Virus record (IMG/VR): IMGVR_UViG_2534681674_000022
Span: 1 to 20,098 of that record
Direction: 5' to 3' (one strand)
Source of the DNA: a virus
Lineage: Duplodnaviria; Heunggongvirae; Uroviricota; Caudoviricetes
DNA: 20,098 nucleotides
In this document: in pieces, positions 9,620 through 17,517 of the stretch
Numbering within the stretch: the stretch's first letter is position 1
Layout of the letters: each line of letters begins with the position of its first letter
Notes under the pieces: generated by a model
What the model was told of the DNA's origin: nothing
The model's database searches: none
Seen by the model: the letters and a program-made list of their open reading frames with translations, nothing else
Program-made: the position numbers and the translations under genes

Positions 9620-10507
9620 TCAGGCTGCCAGATCATCGTTTCTGATGGAAGCATAATAAGCTTTTTCTGCTTCTGCCGGAGGGATATGACCCAGCCTTCC
9701 CAGCAATCGTCGATTGTTATACCAGTCCACCCACGTGAGTGTGGCCAGTTCCACTTCTGCACGGTTTTTCCAGCTCTTACGGTGTATTACCTCCGCTTTG
9801 TAAAGACCATTGATGCTCTCCGCCATCGCGTTGTCATACGAGTCACCTGTACTCCCTGTTGATGCCAGCAGTTTTGCTTCTTTTAGTCGCTCCGTATAGG
9901 CCAGTGATACATACTGAGAACCTTTATCACTGTGATGGACTGTGCCGGACGGCCGACGGGCCCACAACGCCTGCTCCAGTGCATCCAGCACGAATGTCGT
10001 TTCCATAGACGATGAGACTCGCCACCCCACGATACATCCGGCAAACACATCAATGATGAACGCCACATAGACGAAGCCCTGCCATGTGCTGACGTAAGTA
10101 AAATCAGCCACCCACAGCTGGTCAGGACGTTCTGCCACGAACTGACGGTTTACGCGGTCGCCTGCGGAAACGGCTTTCCGGCTGACGGTAGTACGGACCT
10201 TTTTACCCCGGAGAACACCGGCAAGTCCCATAACCGCCATGAGGCGCGCCACTGTACATCTGGCCACCCTGATACCTTCGCGTAACAACTGGCGCCAGAC
10301 TTTACGCACACCGTACACCTGATGATTTTCATCGTATACGCGCTGTATCTCTCTCTTCAGCCAGTCATCGCGCTGAGCACGGGCACTGCGTTTATCAGGA
10401 TGATGTCGCTGTTGCTGACAGTGGTAATACGTTGACGGGGCAATATGCAGTTCACTGCATACCGGTCCGACCCCGTACTGCTCACGCAGCTTATCCAGCA
10501 GCGGCAT
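9620..10507 (-). CDS. IS629 OrfB, 295 aa, intact
   Basis: Full-length DDE transposase ORF in the -1 frame relative to OrfA. Confidence 0.9.
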   Translation of the reverse strand: MPLLDKLREQYGVGPVCSELHIAPSTYYHCQQQRHHPDKRSARAQRDDWLKREIQRVYDENHQVYGVRKVWRQLLREGIRVARCTVARLMAVMGLAGVLRGKKVRTTVSRKAVSAGDRVNRQFVAERPDQLWVADFTYVSTWQGFVYVAFIIDVFAGCIVGWRVSSSMETTFVLDALEQALWARRPSGTVHHSDKGSQYVSLAYTERLKEAKLLASTGSTGDSYDNAMAESINGLYKAEVIHRKSWKNRAEVELATLTWVDWYNNRRLLGRLGHIPPAEAEKAYYASIRNDDLAA

Positions 10508-10833
10508 TATTTTTTCCAGAGGCGGTCGAACTCCGCCTTCGCAAAATAAGCGGAAGCCTGGCGAAGGATATCGTTACTGCGGCGCAGTTCACGATTTTCA
10601 CGTTCCAGCTCTTTCAGACGCTGACGTTCAGCGGTGGTGAGTCCACCATCACCACTCCCGGTATCCCGCTCATGCTGACGAACCCACACACGCAGAGTCT
10701 CTGGTGTACAGCCAATCTTTGGGGCAATGGAACAAATTGCCGCCCATTGTGAGTCATATTCGCCCTGACTTTCCAGAACCATACGAACTGCCCGTTGACG
10801 GACCTCGGGGGAAAAACGTGTATTTTTAGTCAT
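10507..10833 (-). CDS. IS629 OrfA, 108 aa, intact
   Basis: Identical translation to OrfA of copy 2. Confidence 0.9.
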
Positions 10834-11732: not shown

Positions 11733-13439
11733 CTACTGCTCGATCACGCATTTGCTCCATAAAGGTTGGATCGCATGTCGATCTTTGCTGTAGGGGAATC
11801 TTTTATTTTTTTTCTTCTGTTCCATCAGTAATGTGTCGATTTCGTCGTTGACAATGCGCGTCACAGCGTGACGATAACGGTTTAGCGATGTATCACTGAT
11901 ATCCTGAGGCAGGCATAAACTGGTATCGGTTTTGATGCGTTCATTTATGCCATCTTTAACTTTCCATTTCAGACCATCAGGAACCCCTTCCTGCAAATCA
12001 TAGGCTTTCAGTCCCGCAAGTCGTACAACAACGTCAATCTTCTCTGTTCGTATTGTTTTATTACTTACCAACAAAACTTTATTAGTTTCATACCATTTTT
12101 CAAATGATTCCAGCCGTTTTACTGCATTTATGATGTTATTCCTAATTCCAGAAAATTCAATAGAATCTGTGTATTTCATTTTCTTTTCTTCAGCATTAGG
12201 GGCTATTCCAGGATAGTCAATATCATTCTTTACAGACTCCAGATATGCATATTGCAGGCAGCCTGAAAGATGAATTGCTGCATCCTGCAGAGTATTAGTG
12301 CGAATCAATCTAAGGAGTTCATCTCGTTGTATGGTTATCTGACAATAATCCCTTTCCCATGCGGTCGTATTCTCGGTTTTTTCATCTTTATCCGGAGTAA
12401 CTGTTGCGAATTTCCATGTGTACTGGATGAAATCTGTTGGTTTAAAATATGCCATGCTTGTTTTTACCCAACCGCAGATTTCAGCTGCATAAATATGGAC
12501 ATAAATATTGTACATTGTCTTTATTTCATGCTGACTGGCGACTGAGAACATATTTTTTACGAATTCTGTACATCCGATTATCGATAGTCGTTCTCTCAGT
12601 CTGTGCACATCTTCAGTATCTGACTTCCTGCAGTCCCAGGGCCATTTGTTCTTATTCTCAAAACAGGAAAGCCATTCTGGAATATTTTGCTTATACTGGT
12701 AGAATTCGTTGACCGCCAGACCAATGGTTATGGCAAGTATTGTTGATTCATCTATTTCATGATACTGCTTCAGGTGTGCCAGCAACTCTGAGGTGCAGGA
12801 GTGCGCAACAGACAGATCCTGATGGCAATACCCCTGCCGGGCTTCTGCTGGAATTGGTGAACTCCAGGCTTTACATTCAGTCAGAATATTAAATAAATCA
12901 TCTCCTACAAACTTTGCCAGTTCAGGTGTTTTCCAGGTTCTTGGTCCCAGGCTGAAAAAGTCTGGTGTTGTCTGTACCTCTTGCATCGCTCCCCAGCTTT
13001 TCAGGCTGATATTTCCTTCATCAAAGCCATTGTATAAATGGCACATAACATTAAGCGCATTAGTAAGAGCAGTGGGTTGAGACGATGTAGATGCGCCAAG
13101 AGCAAAATTTTCTTTTCTTTGTTTGTTAAAAATTTTCTGGAGCTCTGTATTATCACGCAATGCCAAGAGAACTTTGTGCTGTTCTTCAAACCAGGGGCGA
13201 TATTCTGGATCCTGATATAGCTGACGTGCCTTAAAAATGAGCAAAAGGAGTTGTTCGGAAACAGCCTCATATATGCCAGGGAATGGGCGGGATTCTCCGG
13301 ATAAAATACGATAGTACTGATTTTGTTGCATAGTCTGATTTACCATTATGTAAGAAGGTTTCCTTTTGCCGCATACCGGATACTGGCAGTTAAAATCGAT
13401 GTTATCTCCTGAAAGGATACGTTGATACTGAGTCTGCAT
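11733..13439 (-). CDS. Large orphan protein, 568 aa, unknown function, low-GC gene
   Basis: Long uninterrupted ORF in an AT-rich island. N-terminal tandem peptide repeat QYQRILSGD / QYYRILSGE. No family recognised by eye; start codon uncertain (no clear ribosome-binding site at the first ATG). Confidence 0.6.
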   Translation of the reverse strand: MQTQYQRILSGDNIDFNCQYPVCGKRKPSYIMVNQTMQQNQYYRILSGESRPFPGIYEAVSEQLLLLIFKARQLYQDPEYRPWFEEQHKVLLALRDNTELQKIFNKQRKENFALGASTSSQPTALTNALNVMCHLYNGFDEGNISLKSWGAMQEVQTTPDFFSLGPRTWKTPELAKFVGDDLFNILTECKAWSSPIPAEARQGYCHQDLSVAHSCTSELLAHLKQYHEIDESTILAITIGLAVNEFYQYKQNIPEWLSCFENKNKWPWDCRKSDTEDVHRLRERLSIIGCTEFVKNMFSVASQHEIKTMYNIYVHIYAAEICGWVKTSMAYFKPTDFIQYTWKFATVTPDKDEKTENTTAWERDYCQITIQRDELLRLIRTNTLQDAAIHLSGCLQYAYLESVKNDIDYPGIAPNAEEKKMKYTDSIEFSGIRNNIINAVKRLESFEKWYETNKVLLVSNKTIRTEKIDVVVRLAGLKAYDLQEGVPDGLKWKVKDGINERIKTDTSLCLPQDISDTSLNRYRHAVTRIVNDEIDTLLMEQKKKNKRFPYSKDRHAIQPLWSKCVIEQ

Positions 13440-13680
13440 CTACTAATAAAACGGATGCCTGCCGTGTTTTCGGGGTGATACAGGGTATACCTGAGAATGC
13501 ATCTATTATTACGATAATTTTCCTCCAGCGTGTTGTAACAATTATAACACCCGTCAGATCTCCTTCTTATTCCTCCTCCTGAATATTCCGATCTGTTGAA
13601 GCTGTTGTTGTCATTTCAATGACAGGTAAAATGCCTGGCTCTCTTTCCCTCCTATTGTGAATAGTAAAAACTAATTTATT

Positions 13681-13700
13681 TTTGTGATCTTGGTCACAAA
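13681..13700. promoter_or_regulatory. Palindromic operator candidate in a divergent promoter region
   Basis: TTTGTGA-tcttgg-TCACAAA (7-bp perfect inverted arms) in the 635-bp AT-rich region between the 568-aa gene and alpA. Confidence 0.3.
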
Positions 13701-14075
13701 TTTAACCCCCTCCTTCTCTTCTTTACTATCACTGTCAGAAGTTTATCTGAGCATAACATGAAGTCGATACTAGATTCATTTTGTGTCATTGTCAACAGTG
13801 AAAACCACTTCTTGGCTTAAAATCATTGTTTGTAATGTGCATTATTGGTTGTTTTGTTGCTAATCAACACATATTGACCTATGAGTTGGCTTGTGAGTCA
13901 AGTATTGTTTTATTTGTCTTAACTTGACTTGATTTGTTTTCGTATGTACCTTGCTGTCCATGGGTGTTCTGTGAGCAATATGACAACGGAATCTCCACTA
14001 TGGATTGTCCAGGAAATTCAGTCATTTCATGCTCACAACTGAGATAAGAATCATTGATATATCAGGAGGGCCGTC

Positions 14076-14303
14076 ATGTGGGTTCCATTAACAGATGAGC
14101 AACGTTCAGTAATTTTGAAAGCCTATGGGACTGAGGGTGACAGACTGGTACGTGAAAAGGAACGAAAAGAGATCACCTCAATTTCCCGTTCACAAGCCTG
14201 GAAACTTGAACGAGAGGGAAACTACCCACCGCGTAAGACTATCGGAAAGAAATCTTGTGGCTGGTTACTAAGTGACCTTCTCTGGTGGATTCAGACCAGA
14301 TGA
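14076..14303 (+). CDS. alpA: AlpA-family phage/integrative-element transcriptional regulator, 75 aa
   Basis: AGGAGG ribosome-binding site 6 nt upstream. C-terminal motif ITSISRSQAWKLEREGNYPPRKTIGKKSCGWLLSDLLWWI matches the AlpA helix-turn-helix signature. Confidence 0.7.
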   Translation: MWVPLTDEQRSVILKAYGTEGDRLVREKERKEITSISRSQAWKLEREGNYPPRKTIGKKSCGWLLSDLLWWIQTR

Positions 14304-14398
14304 ACTGTTTGTATTTTCAGTCTGAATAGCAGCTATTTTCGCTATTGTAGCGGAAATTGCTGCAACTTTACTAACCCATTAATGAAAATGGAGGCTTT

Positions 14399-15847
14399 AT
14401 GTGCTTACTAGCACCAGAAAATCCTTATCCGATATATGCACTACCACCGCTGGTGAGAAATGCAATAATTGAAACTCAACAAAATACACAGGCTCCTTTG
14501 GCTATGGTGGCGACATCCGCATTAACAGCGATGTCAATTGCCTGTCAGAATCAGATTGACGTGTGCAGACCTGGAAATTTACGTGGGCCCGTTAATATTT
14601 ACTCTCTGATTCTGGCTGATTCCGGTGAAAGGAAAACGACCGTGGATAAAGTGTTTATGAAAGCATTTTATCTCAGGGATGAAGCCCTGGCGGAAGAATA
14701 CGCGAAACTGGTTGAGAATTACAGTACAGAAAAGGAAATATGGGAGCAAAAACAAAAAGCGCTGGAATCAAAATTTCATAAAGAGATTCGTGCCGGTAAA
14801 GATTACAAGGCAACAGAATCAGAGCTTGAAACGCATCTGAATAACTCTCCTGTTCCGCCGCAGATACGTCGAACAATTTTTAATGATACAACGATAGAGG
14901 GAATGTTAAAATATTACTCCGATAGCAATCGTTCTTTTGCTCTTGTATCCAGTGAAGGGGGAGTAATTTTTGACAGCCGGGCCATGAGTAAACTGGGAAT
15001 TATTAACACTTTGTGGGATGGAGGTTCTCTTTTCATCGACAGGAAATCATCTCCCGGAATTAATTTGAAGGAGCCAAGACTGACGATGTCGGCGATGATT
15101 CAGCCTGATGTTTACCACAAAGGTTTTTGTACGCGAAAAAAAGAACTTGTGAAAACGTCAGGACATCATGCAAGGTTTTTGATGTGTCAACCAACATCAA
15201 TGCAGGGGACAAGGATAATAACCGGAGATAATTATTCATCACAGTATCAGGAGTTATTTGATAAGAGGATCAATGAACTTATTGATGAAAGTCTGGCGAT
15301 GAGTGGTGAACGACGTTGCCTTCACTTTTCTCCTCAGGCTGCCAGAATCTGGACGGATTATTACAATGATGTGGAATCGAAACTGGGGGGATTGGGGCCT
15401 TTAAGACATTGTCGGGAATATGCTGCCAAAAATGCAGAGTATATGGCAAGACTGGCAGGACTTATTTACCATTCGAGCGGTGAAGAGGGGGAGATTTCCC
15501 CTTACACTGCAGAAATGGCGAGAGAATTAGCAATATGGTACGGTAATGAGTATATGCGGTTGTCTAATCCGTTAACTTTTGACAACACTGCTCTGACCGT
15601 ACCTGTGCGACTCATTCCAGAGGAGCTTGAACTTTTCAACTGGATAAAAAGCTATTGCATTGAGAAGGGGATCCTCTGTATGAAAAAAATGACATTTTAT
15701 AGCGTGGTCCGAACCGTTTCCGGAAAAAGGATAAAATCAACTGGTTACTGGATTTACTGTATGAACAAAACAGAGTTGTACCGGTTATTGAGGGAAAAAC
15801 GTTGTGTGTCGCACCTAACTTTGACCTCTGAACGACTTAATCGTTGA
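14399..15847 (+). CDS. YfjI-like protein (DUF3987 family) typical of CP4-57-like elements, 482 aa
   Basis: GGAGG ribosome-binding site. Position immediately after alpA and size match CP4-57 yfjI. Family assignment is from memory, not from a search. Confidence 0.4.
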   Translation: MCLLAPENPYPIYALPPLVRNAIIETQQNTQAPLAMVATSALTAMSIACQNQIDVCRPGNLRGPVNIYSLILADSGERKTTVDKVFMKAFYLRDEALAEEYAKLVENYSTEKEIWEQKQKALESKFHKEIRAGKDYKATESELETHLNNSPVPPQIRRTIFNDTTIEGMLKYYSDSNRSFALVSSEGGVIFDSRAMSKLGIINTLWDGGSLFIDRKSSPGINLKEPRLTMSAMIQPDVYHKGFCTRKKELVKTSGHHARFLMCQPTSMQGTRIITGDNYSSQYQELFDKRINELIDESLAMSGERRCLHFSPQAARIWTDYYNDVESKLGGLGPLRHCREYAAKNAEYMARLAGLIYHSSGEEGEISPYTAEMARELAIWYGNEYMRLSNPLTFDNTALTVPVRLIPEELELFNWIKSYCIEKGILCMKKMTFYSVVRTVSGKRIKSTGYWIYCMNKTELYRLLREKRCVSHLTLTSERLNR

Positions 15848-15858
15848 GTAACATATAG

Positions 15859-15883
15859 TCTCCTCCGTTACTTGCGGAGGAGA
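15859..15883 (+). other. Stable hairpin directly after the DUF3987 gene stop
   Basis: TCTCCTCCG-ttacttg-CGGAGGAGA (9-bp perfect stem), not followed by a clean T-tract. Confidence 0.35.
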
Positions 15884-16079
15884 TTAATGCCATGACCATG
15901 TCAGTGTTGTATTACAGAACTTTGGTACAGGTCAGTCAGTAAATATAACTGGTGTAACTACTATTTACTATTGGATAGAGTGTTGTACAGGATATTGCTG
16001 GCTTTGGCCTTAGATAAGGAGGGCACTTCATTGTTTTCGTATTCAATAAATAATTAAGGTTAATTAGTATTATTAGTGG

Positions 16080-16400
16080 AAGTTATGTTATCTGTTATGT
16101 TGTCTCTTTTTATCGTAATGTCACTCCTCTTTATGCTGAGTATTCTGTATGTGCGTAATGCGTCTATCCCCATATACTACAGTGTGGTGGTGTATGGAGT
16201 TTAGTTATGTGTAAATTATGTTACTACACTCATAGCGTAATATTGAGAAAGTTAATCCACTGAATGTATGTCTGGTTTGTATTTAACACTAGTTACGTAC
16301 CAGAACACTATTAGAGTATATTGTCTTTAGTTCGTATGTTATATCTCCGTTACAGTTTATAAGTATGGGTAAATATAATATTTTCTGTATGAAATAATCT
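16080..16400. repeat. AT-rich non-coding region with iteron-like GTATG/TTATG reiterations (candidate replication origin)
   Basis: At least 6 GTATG and 4 TTATG occurrences in about 320 bp (for example GTTATGTTATCTGTTATGTT at 16083). About 950 bp with no convincing ORF, upstream of the HUH Rep gene. Confidence 0.4.
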
Positions 16401-16641
16401 TCTTATTGTGAGGTTAAATATCTGTAGGCTCTCTCTGCAGAGTCTCTGTTTTTACTTAATGGTTCGGCAATATTAATAGCGATGTTGCCTGTGGCTATTC
16501 GATAGCTGACTTTTGTGAAGATCAGATTACTTCCTGTAAGTGATTGAATGGTACTTCCTTAAACTTAATTCTATGAGGTGTGTTTTTGCCATTGTAATTC
16601 TTACTGGTCCTCTGTTTAAGAGAGCCTCACTGTATTCTGAA

Positions 16642-16669
16642 GTATTACCTCATTGTAATGAGGTAATAC
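16642..16669. promoter_or_regulatory. Perfect 12-bp inverted repeat with 4-bp spacer (operator or origin hairpin candidate)
   Basis: GTATTACCTCAT-tgta-ATGAGGTAATAC, about 130 bp upstream of the Rep ATG. Confidence 0.45.
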
Positions 16670-16799
16670 CAAACAGTTTTATCAGGTTGTCTGTGCTGCT
16701 GGTTACCTCGTTTATTAATGCCGCGGTACGGCGTTTCTGTACTCTCAGTATTTATGTAATTCCACTTTCCTGTCAGTTTTATAAAGTAAGGACTATAAA

Positions 16800-17363
16800 A
16801 TGTATAATGCTAATCCCAATTACGAAATGGACTTCATGATTCTGAAAGACGTGAATGAACACATGGAAGGTCTGTTTCAACGTTTTTCTAAACTGTTACC
16901 TTTCAGAATTGATTTTGCCTACAGGAAAGACACGCCCAGTTTTGGTCATTCCTGTAGGCACAGTATGTGTATTGAAATGCACCGCTTACTTAGTGAAACC
17001 CAAACGATGCTGGCGGGATATTACTGGGTAATGGAATATACGTCAAACAAGGGACTTCATATTCATTTTATCGGCTACCTGGATGGGCAACGTCACAACA
17101 AATCTTATCGGATATCCAGGCAACTGGGAGATATCTGGAGGCGGATCACGGAAGGGGAGGGTTATTTTCACCTGTGCAGGGCTAAAGACAAATACCCGGT
17201 GCGTATCGATCACGTAATTCACTATAGTGATAAATCTGCGGTAGACGACTTACGTTACGCCCTTAGCTATCTGGCCAAACAGGATCAGAAAGAACACGGT
17301 ATTATTCTGAGGCGTAGCAGGCTTCCCGAAAAAAGCAACCGGGGCCGACCACGACATAACTGA
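16800..17363 (+). CDS. HUH-type replication initiator (inovirus Gp2 / YfjJ-like family), 187 aa
   Basis: AAGGA ribosome-binding site 7 nt upstream. HUH motif in GLHIHFIGY and a downstream Tyr-rich motif YALSYLAK. Confidence 0.5.
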   Translation: MYNANPNYEMDFMILKDVNEHMEGLFQRFSKLLPFRIDFAYRKDTPSFGHSCRHSMCIEMHRLLSETQTMLAGYYWVMEYTSNKGLHIHFIGYLDGQRHNKSYRISRQLGDIWRRITEGEGYFHLCRAKDKYPVRIDHVIHYSDKSAVDDLRYALSYLAKQDQKEHGIILRRSRLPEKSNRGRPRHN

Positions 17364-17517
17364 ATTACAGCTGTATTAGGTATTAGAATTAAGTTTCTGT
17401 AAGTTGTTGGGAGGTGCTTGAGTTAATAGGCAGAAGAGGGCGGGGCGCTTTGTCATCAGTGTAGGGGACCCGAATTTCTGCCGTGGTGCCTCAGTGGATC
17501 AGATACAGGTAACGAAT

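Follow-up and report, generated by a model that had tools for sequence, protein, structure and literature searches.

A conserved 32-nt box upstream of a Gp2-like HUH nuclease gene on enterobacterial islands is a candidate nick site or promoter

Upstream of a gene for a Gp2-like HUH nuclease on an E. coli genomic island lies an AT-rich 32-nt box (AATTAAGGTTAATTAGTATTATTAGTGGAAGT, positions 16052-16083) that is, as judged from sequence alignments, conserved across genera far beyond neutral expectation, and that we regard as the best candidate for either the target site of this putative nickase, i.e. a replication origin, or the promoter of its gene. Defence islands integrating at tRNA genes are described in a preprint as encoding an integrase, AlpA and HUH Rep-like initiators, yet the literature that mentions the 'Rep-like' HUH gene does not define an origin (PMC12458937; bioRxiv 2024.08.29.610337), and for these islands the box offers a candidate. 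As a genus-spanning cis element linked to an HUH gene, it is a concrete candidate for a nick or control site, and its core, AATTWRGGTTAATTARTRTTAT, can be used as a sequence tag for locating such modules in unannotated DNA. Were the box a promoter only, the result would be an ordinary one.

The box was found in a stretch of 20,098 nucleotides, here called the window, in which the following features are relevant:

14076-14303, + strand: gene for an AlpA-family regulator/excisionase, part of the island backbone (Pfam Phage_AlpA, E = 2e-13; the counterpart in ETEC6335 is an HTH regulator according to PGAP)
14399-15847, + strand: gene for a YfjI-family (DUF3987) putative DNA helicase (Pfam DUF3987, E = 3.5e-85; PHROG 2373 'DNA helicase', E = 5e-62)
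15848-16040, no strand assigned: 3' flank inherited with yfjI, including a stem-loop at 15856-15886, outside the Gp2 module (allele alignment)
16052-16083, + strand: conserved box, candidate recognition or nick site of the Gp2-like HUH nuclease and/or promoter/operator
16082-16105, + strand: two tandem copies of a 12-mer (GTTATGTTATCT / GTTATGTTGTCT) that adjoin the box, putative 'bind' repeats specific to the lineage
16106-16420, + strand: variable AT/GT-rich spacer holding most KTATG pentamers, indel-rich and dispensable (allele comparison)
16421-16452, + strand: terminator-like hairpin, then a T5 run (terminator scan)
16453-16799, + strand: leader that is inherited together with the Gp2-like gene within the E. 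coli/E. albertii lineage (allele alignment)
16642-16669, + strand: 28-bp palindrome, forming a hairpin whose basal stem (GTATTACC/GGTAATAC) is conserved and whose apex varies (56-locus comparison)
16750-16793, + strand: proximal leader with a -50 block, ATTTATGTAATT (AAAAATTACR in other genera), an anti-SD, TTTCCTG, at 16766-16772 and the SD, TAAGGAC, at 16787-16793
16800-17363, + strand: gene for the Gp2-like, domain-only HUH nuclease, 187 aa, with a C-terminal RGRPR AT-hook (motifs and predicted fold)

The gene at the right-hand end had originally been predicted to encode an HUH Rep, and the protein bears this out. The residues H87xH89, Y153, Y157 and K160 are nearly or fully invariant among 25 homologues, the RGRPR AT-hook is invariant, and the confident AF2 model (mean pLDDT 90) resembles a Rep nuclease, its best specific fold matches being the nuclease domains of parvovirus NS1, AAV Rep, SIRV ORF119 and circovirus Rep. 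The protein corresponds to the C-terminal half only of longer family members (~360 aa). Among phages the only relative was a weak Acinetobacter match with 27% identity, a PDB sequence search returned nothing meaningful, NCBIfam and PADLOC hold no model for the protein, and a scan of genome contigs with a single protein query gave only two close relatives. With YfjJ of the K-12 element CP4-57, the protein has only the HUH motif in common.

The box consists of the core, 5-6 variable nucleotides and a purine-rich GRAGT segment, occurs once in the window and is located at the left edge of, or just outside, the interval that had been flagged (16080-16800). In every Gp2-like locus with enough upstream DNA it lies on the strand of the gene, 84-1159 nt upstream, including loci whose Gp2 proteins are down to 37% identical to that of the window. 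The match extends to 20-31 of the 32 positions in 11 other lineages, while the flanks of the distant lineages match at only 10-24 of 60 positions, which is the random level, and the box is the only distal upstream sequence common to E. coli and the Erwinia, Citrobacter, Yersinia, Limnobaculum, Rouxiella and metagenome loci (Gp2 identity 37-65%). Variants across lineages include AATTAAGG, AATTTGGG and AATTTAGG, with R16 and R18 as the variable purines of the core, and C. braakii has a degenerate copy at -154. The distance from box to ATG is fairly constant in the compact lineages (~125-190 nt) and amounts to ~270 nt in Citrobacter. Single-stranded DNA folds of 18 lineages gave no conserved hairpin around the box, the mean unpaired probability being ~0.5 throughout.

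When metagenomes were searched in reverse, with the core alone as query, 120 loci were recovered. In all 78 loci with a Gp2 match the gene is co-oriented with the box, which it follows at a distance of 124-1159 nt, and a Gp2-like gene is present in 58 of the 68 metagenome loci having more than 1800 nt downstream; nine of the ten loci without the gene deviate at box position 1 and resemble chance matches. In viral contigs, a scan for the 17-mer core returned 76 matches that we rejected as essentially all due to chance, L041 alone being real. This contig, a piece of an E. coli island that IS1 has cut, is the sole viral contig with the extended box; a profile scan of the viral contigs for the box also returned one locus. 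No phage or plasmid with a characterised origin was found to share the box.

The YfjI/DUF3987 and Gp2-like genes are separated by 952 bp (15848-16799), a gap with a GC content of 35.2% vs ~42-45% in the flanking genes and no conserved ORF, which agrees with its original description as an AT-rich gap of ~950 bp without a convincing ORF. Two ORFs were considered as genes and rejected, namely a 39-aa hydrophobic one at 16085-16204, which is frameshifted, truncated or deleted in relatives, and a 99-aa one at 16540-16839, which has no Pfam match and is broken by 1-4-nt indels in relatives. Our best reading is that the gap is composite, with the left 190 bp belonging to yfjI and the sequence from ~16040 rightwards forming the cis-acting/leader region of the Gp2-like gene. 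The left part (15848-16040) is 87-89% identical among the E. coli alleles that keep yfjI; ETEC4070 (L009) and E. albertii (L003), which have another upstream gene, carry unrelated sequence in its place. The box is retained in both and in three further loci with a different upstream gene (L015, L017, L020), homology beginning ~15 nt before it; in these alignments the box tracks gp2, not yfjI. In all distant loci the Gp2-like gene is preceded by 350 bp or more of non-coding DNA. In the window, the 3' end of yfjI is shifted by a 1-nt deletion near 15682, which moves the stop from 15831 to 15847 as compared with ETEC6335.

The module is present in 1585 of 5426 complete E. coli genomes (about 29%), and islands built on the integrase-AlpA-YfjI-Gp2 backbone carry Zorya, Druantia/ARMADA, TOTE, a KAP NTPase, urease/tellurite or toxin genes as cargo. 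In the island of the window the integrase has been lost to an IS3-family element, and for this reason the box site may be inactive there.

Abutting the box, GTTATGTT is duplicated in tandem at 16082-16105 (starts at 16082 and 16094; TRF score 41), and the duplication is preserved in the E. coli alleles; by itself, the 12-mer duplication of the window gives p ~0.1 in a periodicity test. In the P0021 sister lineage (L029 type), tandem arrays with 13/26-nt units begin 8 nt past the box (p < 0.01), and the Citrobacter sequence contains the box's 3' half in triplicate; in the compact Erwinia/Yersinia-type lineages no significant repeats were found beside the box. The original prediction had listed, besides the tandem repeat, at least ten copies of GTATG/TTATG, and in fact there are twelve (six GTATG and six TTATG), all on the + strand and none on the - strand, 11 of them inside 16083-16391, with irregular spacings of 11-68 nt. 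This count exceeds the 5.7 +/- 2.2 of shuffled sequences (p ~0.01), for a motif picked after looking, whereas the commonest k-mer compared with the commonest of each shuffle (k = 5-8) gave no excess in 16050-16420, in 16080-16800 or in the whole gap (p = 0.29-1.0). Half of the pentamers (6/12) fall inside a 165-bp segment, 16106-16270, that is deleted in JNQH-type alleles and in EDL933-type islands, the latter with a Gp2 gene 99-100% identical to that of the window, and other alleles have different indels. The proposal that the pentamers are iterons is not supported on these grounds, and an iteron-type theta origin is disfavoured by the missing k-mer excess, the irregular spacing and the loss of six of the twelve copies in EDL933-type alleles.

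Closer to the gene, the perfect inverted repeat noted originally at ~130 bp before the Rep start is real, with arms of 13 + 13 nt (16642-16654 and 16657-16669) around a 2-nt centre, 28 bp in total, ending 131 bp before the ATG at 16800; arms of at least 13 nt occurred in 0 of 1000 dinucleotide shuffles, the largest being 10. Its proposed role as the origin hairpin of the HUH Rep was not supported by the comparison of loci, as only 3 of 56 related loci have the palindrome in perfect form and Erwinia, Yersinia, Citrobacter and other distant relatives have no homologous sequence there. In the other E. coli/E. albertii loci the hairpin is imperfect; altogether the 56 loci contain 21 sequence variants, every one of which folds to a hairpin, with the conserved half-sites 12 to 16 nt apart. 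RNAalifold analysis of 18 variants revealed no two-sided compensatory pairs and eight one-sided changes to G.U pairs (+ strand). An intrinsic terminator was also considered for the palindrome and rejected, the stem being AT-rich, CAAACAG following without a T-run and the terminator scan not reporting it. The palindrome is best read as a putative conserved leader hairpin that is perfect only in the allele type of the window, and it appears from the alleles compared that palindrome and short repeats are recent, lineage-specific features.

The terminator-like hairpin is kept in related alleles of the E. coli lineage, with a compensatory stem change from CTGTAG/CTGCAG to GTGAGG/CCTCAC, and no terminator is predicted in the compact lineages. 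The leader at 16453-16799 is 88-99% identical across alleles vs 83-91% at gp2 third-codon positions; extra constraint on 16400-16799 was rejected, since identity is about that of the third-codon positions. Its indels are not multiples of three, its RNA folding signal is modest (z = -2.6 for the + and -1.9 for the - strand), and it has no counterpart in the compact lineages, where mostly ~125-190 bp lie between box and ATG. Additionally, 16080-16452 gave no signal of structured RNA (z = -0.9), and a scan with the Rfam 15 covariance models across 13400-17600 on both strands returned no match at E <= 1. Immediately before the gene, the -50 block and the anti-SD/SD complementarity recur in at least 15 lineages, with co-varying flanks (CTTCCT/AGGAAG, GTTCCTC/GAGGAAC, ATCTATC/GATAGAT and CCATGAA/TTCATGG); in the allele of the window this pairing comprises 4 bp only.

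The reading that we favour, tentatively and somewhat short of calling it probable, is that the box and the adjacent lineage-specific tandem repeats are the cognate nic/bind site of the nickase, and that the rest of the region is mRNA leader. What the analysis shows is a conserved box linked to the gene, a protein with the motifs and fold described, and the repeat architecture, and from these we infer binding, nicking and replication at this site. The original proposal of a replication origin upstream of the HUH Rep would thereby stand in part, i.e. in the HUH gene and in a deeply conserved cis element with tandem repeats, and fall with regard to the palindrome and the pentamers. In pMV158/pT181-type plasmids, the nic regions are conserved within the family and the bind regions are replicon-specific, and the box (16052-16083) with the abutting repeats (16082-16105) would likewise be the functional core of a rolling-circle-type double-strand origin, composed of an invariant 'nic' and lineage-specific 'bind' repeats. 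In such a scheme, the integrase with AlpA would excise the island as a circle, Gp2 would dock through its C-terminal AT-hook on the AATTAA-GG-TTAATT of the box, an AATT-rich duplex site that suits an AT-hook, and the HUH/Tyr centre would cut the + strand in or beside TARTRTTAT (candidate cut segment TAGTATTAT). This motif resembles, at 8 of 9 positions and within AT-rich sequence, what we take to be the origin nonanucleotide of CRESS viruses (TAGTATTAC/TAATATTAC). The 3'-OH would then be extended by a helicase, either YfjI of the island or host Rep/UvrD, together with DNA polymerase III. The site may overlap the promoter of the gene and so allow autoregulation, as in geminiviruses. The other ~700 bp, in which the pentamers are scattered and the terminator-like hairpin, palindrome and SD-masking stem lie, would be an evolutionarily labile mRNA leader peculiar to the E. 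coli lineage, without origin components.

We counted for the origin reading the footprint of the box, its gene linkage and tracking of gp2, the HUH protein and the layout of a core plus repeats, as well as the lack of a predicted canonical + strand sigma-70 promoter at the box in the window, Erwinia and Citrobacter and the independent preprint account of HUH Rep-like initiators on these islands (PMC12458937). Counted against it were the absence of a conserved hairpin at the box (many, not all, HUH initiators nick in a hairpin loop) and of significant repeats beside it in the compact lineages, the fact that no phage or plasmid with a characterised origin was found to share the box, the limited CRESS-virus likeness (8 of 9 positions within AT-rich sequence), and the loss of the integrase from the island of the window. 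With somewhat greater reserve, we consider it possible that the box is the nick or recognition site of an uncharacterised clade of nuclease-only AT-hook HUH initiators on the tRNA-integrating defence and virulence islands of Enterobacterales. The excised islands would in that case be autonomous rolling-circle replicons, or would make ssDNA or concatemers for packaging by a helper phage, from an origin that has no hairpin at the nick site and is read partly by minor-groove contacts of the AT-hook.

Rather unlikely in our estimate, though the most serious competitor, is that the box is no nick site and instead serves the Gp2 operon as a promoter into which an operator is embedded. The -10 hexamer would be TAGTAT or TATTAT, with the transcription start at the conserved GRAGT, a regulator (e.g. 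AlpA/MerR-like, Q-like, or Gp2 itself via its AT-hook) would recognise the spacer dyad AATTAA-GG-TTAATT, and the long leader with its terminator-like hairpin, palindrome hairpin and SD-masking stem would control a potentially toxic nuclease. Several observations that we also counted against the origin reading are as expected of a promoter. The box is upstream and on the same strand in 78/78 loci, at a near-constant ~-125 to -190 in the compact lineages; the variable positions of the core are the weakly constrained ones of a -10 hexamer, its T/A/T positions being invariant; the 5-6 variable nucleotides and GRAGT resemble a discriminator and start, with a spacing from box to GRAGT that fits a start site; and a + strand promoter using TATTAT is predicted at the Yersinia box. 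Further, in several lineages GRAGT supplies the 5' arm of a stem, the E. coli lineage has a terminator-like hairpin farther downstream, and the SD-masking stem implies a leader regulated at the RNA level. On the other hand, the -10-like TA-R-T-R-T is conserved and a -35 is not, no sigma-70 promoter is predicted on the + strand at the box of the window, Erwinia or Citrobacter, and promoter-like matches are no commoner than in shuffled sequences. If TATTAT were the -10, at least four lineages with TGTTAT would have lost the critical A. More than 20 invariant nucleotides across proteins of 25-100% identity exceed the contacts of sigma-70, the untranslated leader of 750-1150 nt in E. coli lineages would be unusually long, and the real promoter could be held by the second deeply conserved block, AAAAATTACR at ~-50.

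Improbable is the view that the interval has no dedicated function beyond an ordinary promoter and RBS, being decaying AT-rich DNA acquired horizontally, with conservation in E. coli due to recent common descent and a quasipalindrome perfected by template-switch mutation. The large indels in 16106-16420, the lack of an Rfam match and a leader identity close to that of the third-codon positions are consistent with this, as is the left arm of the palindrome, where a multi-base difference from the other alleles creates the perfect symmetry. Against it, the box is conserved across genera far beyond what neutrality allows, hairpin and terminator-like stem persist although their sequences turn over, and the distant loci all have their non-coding upstream DNA.

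We consider it very improbable that the gap is a theta origin of PICI/SaPI type served by the helicase-like YfjI upstream. In Gram-negative PICIs the origin is located directly 3' of pri-rep, with sets of iterons flanking an AT-rich segment, as validated for EcCICFT073 (PMC6092414), and the gap here follows alpA-yfjI, with two copies of AGTGTTGTA (15903, 15979) and the two of GTTATGTT (16082, 16094) flanking a stretch of ~80% AT at 16030-16080. However, the box tracks gp2 and persists without an adjacent DUF3987 gene, the box and everything to its right stay with gp2 where yfjI is missing or exchanged, the AGTGTTGTA pair is lost in other alleles and no k-mer is in excess, and a melting region need not be sequence-invariant across genera. 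The comparison with CP4-57-like elements that had been suggested originally gave a negative result, as alpA-yfjI-yfjJ of K-12 CP4-57 has only a 152-bp gap between yfjI and yfjJ, without the box. Least credible of all is a discrete product of 16080-16452, be it a ~370-nt ncRNA from the box to the terminator-like hairpin with strand-specific (G/U)UAUG or the 39-aa hydrophobic, toxin-like peptide of 16085-16204 (MLSVMLSLFIVMSLLFMLSILYVRNASIPIYYSVVVYGV), as the one-sided pentamers (12/12), the hairpin with its T5 run at 16421-16452 and the presence of the ORF in several alleles are outweighed by the partial deletion of the segment in EDL933-type alleles and its absence from compact lineages, by frameshifts or truncations of the ORF in many alleles and mostly non-synonymous substitutions between two alleles, by a folding z-score of -0.9 without an Rfam match, and by the hydrophobic ORFs that a T/G-rich strand is expected to yield.

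Among known systems, PICI/SaPI origins are similar in their position 3' of an alpA-helicase module, their satellite-like island, the AT-richness and the short repeats (PMC6092414). They differ in that the conserved element here is linked to a downstream HUH gene and that the repeats are few and lack statistical support. With the Ff phages (f1/M13) the region shares a long hairpin-bearing non-coding stretch just upstream of a gene annotated 'inovirus-type Gp2', but no phage in the collections has a close protein relative or the extended box. An Ff inovirus (+) origin was rejected, as the protein has no phage relatives bar the 27% Acinetobacter match and the extended box occurs in one viral contig only, and so was a likeness to the f1 origin through TAGTGGA, which the allele of the window presumably has in common with the f1 nick region, since this heptamer belongs to a part of the box that varies, and other lineages lack it. 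In lambda Q/QBE and Pseudomonas AlpA/ABE, a factor-loading site is embedded in the promoter and terminators follow; like these, the region has a conserved dyad just before a -10-like hexamer, a gene of the AlpA family in the module and a terminator-like leader hairpin, and unlike these it has no conserved -35, no pause-inducing element that we identified and, in the compact lineages, no predicted terminator.

The geminivirus, nanovirus and circovirus nonanucleotide, which we take to be TAATATT/AC or TAGTATT/AC, differs at one position from the TA(A/G)TATTAT of the box. Their intergenic regions also have lineage-specific short repeats beside an AT-rich core, their site lies in the Rep promoter region, so that origin and promoter could coincide here as well, and the Rep nuclease domains of circoviruses and parvoviruses are among the closest specific fold matches of the Gp2-like protein; the region in the window differs in having no stem-loop, a Rep co-oriented with the site, no fused SF3 helicase and a bacterial host. 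In comparison with the double-strand origins of pMV158/pT181/pC194-type plasmids, the candidate nick sequence lacks a conserved hairpin, resides on a chromosomal island instead of a plasmid and belongs to a 187-aa nuclease-only protein with an AT-hook, for which nicking would be a predicted activity. Like those origins, it combines an HUH gene beside a short family-invariant sequence with direct repeats that, where present, differ between lineages, and the site is located on the coding strand of the initiator gene.

The window is part of an Escherichia coli genomic island, and the non-coding gap at 15848-16799, between the yfjI gene and the gene for a Gp2-like HUH nuclease (gp2), matches a stretch of the ETEC6335 chromosome with 100% identity. 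There, an integrase gene is followed by two hypothetical genes, then by genes for an AlpA-like regulator and a YfjI-family protein, the gap (unannotated), and genes for an 'inovirus-type Gp2 protein' and a TOTE-type primase-polymerase/helicase. Of 5426 complete E. coli genomes, 1583-1585 contain the gap or the 400 bp at its 3' end, and none has it annotated. The main features are:

14076-14303: AlpA
14399-15847: YfjI/DUF3987, with a match to a phage 'DNA helicase' family
16421-16452, + strand: terminator-like hairpin and T5 run, mid-gap, kept in related E. coli-lineage alleles
16800-17363: Gp2-like protein
17340-17363: RGRPR motif, C-terminus of the Gp2-like protein
17494-19731: AEP and SF2 helicase
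1539-1642 of L029 (a related locus of a sister lineage): 13/26-nt repeat array

Because the cargo 3' of the Gp2-like gene varies by strain (TOTE, KAP NTPase, Zorya, enterotoxin, group II intron), this gene is a member of the conserved island backbone. Integrases, AlpA-like excisionases and HUH 'Rep-like' initiators are encoded by these tRNA-integrating defence islands, for which the origin was left undefined (2025 preprint, PMC12458937), and another preprint includes a Gp2-like protein in its core gene list for phage-transduced Pseudomonas islands. In the product of 17494-19731 (Pfam AEP-TOTE; PADLOC 'PrimPol', E = 2e-147), an archaeo-eukaryotic primase-polymerase is joined to an SF2 helicase. 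The gene is classed with conflict systems, but beside an HUH nickase its product could equally prime displaced single strands.

Gp2-like homologues with 37-65% identity were collected from Salmonella, Erwinia, Citrobacter, Yersinia, Limnobaculum, Rouxiella and metagenomes, and every locus with enough upstream sequence has at least 350 bp of non-coding DNA before gp2. The only distal block common to the upstream regions of other Enterobacterales genera and the window is the 32-nt AT-rich sequence AATTAAGGTTAATTAGTATTATTAGTGGAAGT (the box, window 16052-16083), which straddles the left boundary (16080) of the interval flagged as an origin in the original prediction and directly precedes its tandem 12-mers. 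In 11 other lineages, 20-31 of its 32 positions agree with the window, while 10-24 of the 60 nt on either side match in distant lineages; in C. braakii it is degenerate, with a 1-nt deletion, at -154. The consensus of the box reads AATTWRGGTTAATTARTRTTAT and, after 5-6 variable nt, GRAGT. In the reverse test, a metagenome scan with the 21-nt core alone retrieved 120 loci, and in all 78 with a tblastn hit the Gp2-like gene lies on the same strand, 124-1159 nt downstream. Where the sequence continues for more than 1800 nt beyond the core, 58 of 68 loci carry the gene. Nine of the ten gene-less loci look like chance hits, as their position 1 differs and their flanks are unrelated. The core AATTWRGGTTAATTARTRTTAT is thus usable as a sequence tag for Gp2-like HUH genes. 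The box tracks gp2, not yfjI: it is kept where the upstream gene differs or has diverged, and in alleles with different neighbours homology starts about 15 nt before it.

Repeats adjoin the box in some lineages. The sister lineage (L029 and its relatives L127, L217, L223 and L179; Gp2 ~64% identical) carries 13/26-nt arrays with a TGTAAnT core 8 nt after the box, and Citrobacter has three copies of the box's own 3' half, spaced 45-46 nt apart; these two account for the 9 of 45 sequence lineages significant at p < 0.01 in a periodicity test. Erwinia, Yersinia and the other compact lineages, in which the box is at about -125 to -190, gave no significant repeats next to it. The 2 x 12 nt repeat of the window is weak alone (p ~0.1), yet retained among E. 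coli alleles. The window leader also contains TGTAATTC twice (16593, 16755) and TGTAATG at the palindrome centre.

Much of what was originally described in the gap is present: it is AT-rich (952 bp, 35% GC), the tandem GTTATGTTATCT/GTTATGTTGTCT at 16082-16105 was detected by two tools, and the pentamers, claimed to number at least ten, comprise six GTATG and six TTATG, 11 of them within 16083-16391. All lie on the + strand because that strand is G+T-rich. Their proposed enrichment received no support once the choice of motif after inspection was allowed for: when the top real k-mer was compared with the top k-mer per shuffle, no excess was found for k = 5-8 in any sub-interval (p = 0.29-1.0), and the count of 12 KTATG (either pentamer) against 5.7 +/- 2.2 in shuffles (p ~0.01) is valid only for a motif picked post hoc. 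The iteron idea is thus partly supported, for the few bases adjoining the box alone, and unsupported for the scattered pentamers. A very hydrophobic 39-aa ORF (MLSVMLSLFIVMSLLFMLSILYVRNASIPIYYSVVVYGV, 16085-16204) begins directly after the box. Some alleles keep it whole, whereas others have it frameshifted, truncated or deleted, and it was rejected as a gene, being probably a by-product of the T/G-rich strand.

The palindrome at 16642-16669 is slightly longer than first described, with perfect 13+13 arms around a 2-nt centre; arms of at least 13 occurred in 0 of 1000 dinucleotide shuffles (largest arm 10). In regions extracted from 56 loci, all 21 variants fold to a hairpin; its basal stem, GTATTACC/GGTAATAC, hardly varies, and its apex does. 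These loci share the hairpin, but just 3 of the 56 have a perfect repeat, and other-genus upstream regions align neither to it nor to the pentamer region. The spacing of the conserved half-sites varies from 12 to 16 nt, as suits a hairpin better than a dimeric operator. RNAalifold detected no compensatory change on both sides of the stem, only eight on one side that give G.U pairs on the + strand. As no T-run follows the stem, an intrinsic terminator was rejected. Relative to other alleles (L004, L005 and L007), a clustered multi-base change in the left arm gives the perfect repeat, fitting the pattern expected of template-switch 'quasipalindrome correction'.

Across nine aligned alleles (E. 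coli, E. albertii, Escherichia sp.), the 3' 400 bp (16400-16799) are well conserved and the segment with most of the pentamers is indel-rich. The former is not unusually conserved: its allele identity (88-99%) is close to that of third-codon positions of gp2 (83-91%). EDL933-type islands lack 16106-16270, with 6 of the 12 pentamers, and their Gp2 gene is still 99-100% identical to that of the window. The hairpin at 16421-16452 shows a compensatory stem change in ETEC4070-type alleles (GTGAGG/CCTCAC), and folding z-scores are modest (-2.6 and -1.9 for the + and - strands of 16453-16799; -0.9 for 16080-16452). The flagged features are real, yet most of them are recent additions to a leader specific to E. 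coli.

Immediately 5' of the gp2 ATG lies an anti-SD segment that pairs with the gene's SD (window 16766-16793), with equivalents in L012, L015, L017, L020, L023-L026, L029, L142 and L146. The stem flanks co-vary between other genera (CTTCCT/AGGAAG, GTTCCTC/GAGGAAC, ATCTATC/GATAGAT, CCATGAA/TTCATGG), which suggests translational masking of the nuclease; the pairing in the window allele is weak, at only 4 bp. A second deeply conserved block, at about -50, reads AAAAATTACR in other genera and ATTTATGTAATT in the window.

The label 'HUH Rep-like nuclease' for the originally proposed 'HUH Rep' is justified by motif alignment, a confident AlphaFold model (pLDDT 90) and a profile search (34 clusters at E <= 1e-30, 1328 at E <= 1e-10), in which many matches are ~360 aa with the domain in the C-terminal half. 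The alignment of 25 homologues contains an RIDF block together with the motifs WVxE...HxH and Y153-x3-Y157-LAK, and all 25 proteins end in an invariant RGRPR, which we take to be an AT-hook; AT-hooks are not known to have been described in HUH initiators. No close phage relative was found in the phage collections searched, so 'Inovirus Gp2' is a distant family name only. The suggested comparison with CP4-57 of K-12 yielded no counterpart: its yfjI-yfjJ gap is 152 bp and lacks the box, and YfjJ has only the HUH motif in common with the Gp2-like protein.

The window contains several IS3-family copies (9620-10833, 25-1187, 2630-3675, 19757-20098; orfA 108 aa, orfB 295 aa). The island is degraded in this genome, as one copy sits where ETEC6335 has the island integrase, lost here, and another, starting just past 19731, cuts the TOTE primase-helicase from 786 to 745 aa. 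Additionally, a 1-nt deletion at ~15682 relative to ETEC6335 frameshifts the last ~50 codons of yfjI, moving the stop from 15831 to 15847 (482 vs 477 aa). Whatever its role, the box site is probably a relic in this window. In E. coli PEC41 (L010, 4001-4096), a lone 96-bp leader fragment (window 16431-16528, 91% identical) adjoins an IS3 remnant within a degraded prophage and looks like rearrangement debris.

We tentatively favour the box and its adjacent repeats as a candidate cognate nic/bind site of the Gp2-like nuclease, on account of the deep invariance, the lineage-specific repeats, the fit of an AT-hook to an AATT-rich duplex site, and the lack of a predicted canonical + strand promoter at the box in three of the four lineages examined. 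That no conserved hairpin was found at the box counts against it, as do a constant position upstream of and co-oriented with gp2, as a promoter would show, a TA-R-T-R-T pattern resembling a -10 element, a variable 5-6 nt and conserved GRAGT resembling a discriminator and start site, and a promoter predicted at the box in Yersinia. A promoter or operator is therefore a serious, though less likely, rival. Nick-site and promoter roles could also coincide, as in geminiviruses. Functionless, decaying DNA is an improbable account, conceivable only outside the box and the proximal leader. A PICI-type origin serving YfjI is very unlikely because the box is linked to gp2. The segment 16080-16452 is dispensable, which makes it very unlikely, too, that it encodes a discrete ncRNA or small toxin.

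The element worth testing is the box, 16052-16083. In pMV158/pT181-type plasmids and CRESS viruses, HUH nick regions are typically invariant across a family and the adjacent repeats lineage-specific. The proposed nic/bind site is similar on both counts, with more than 20 nt invariant while the Gp2-like family diverged to 25-40% identity, and with box-side repeats that differ by lineage.
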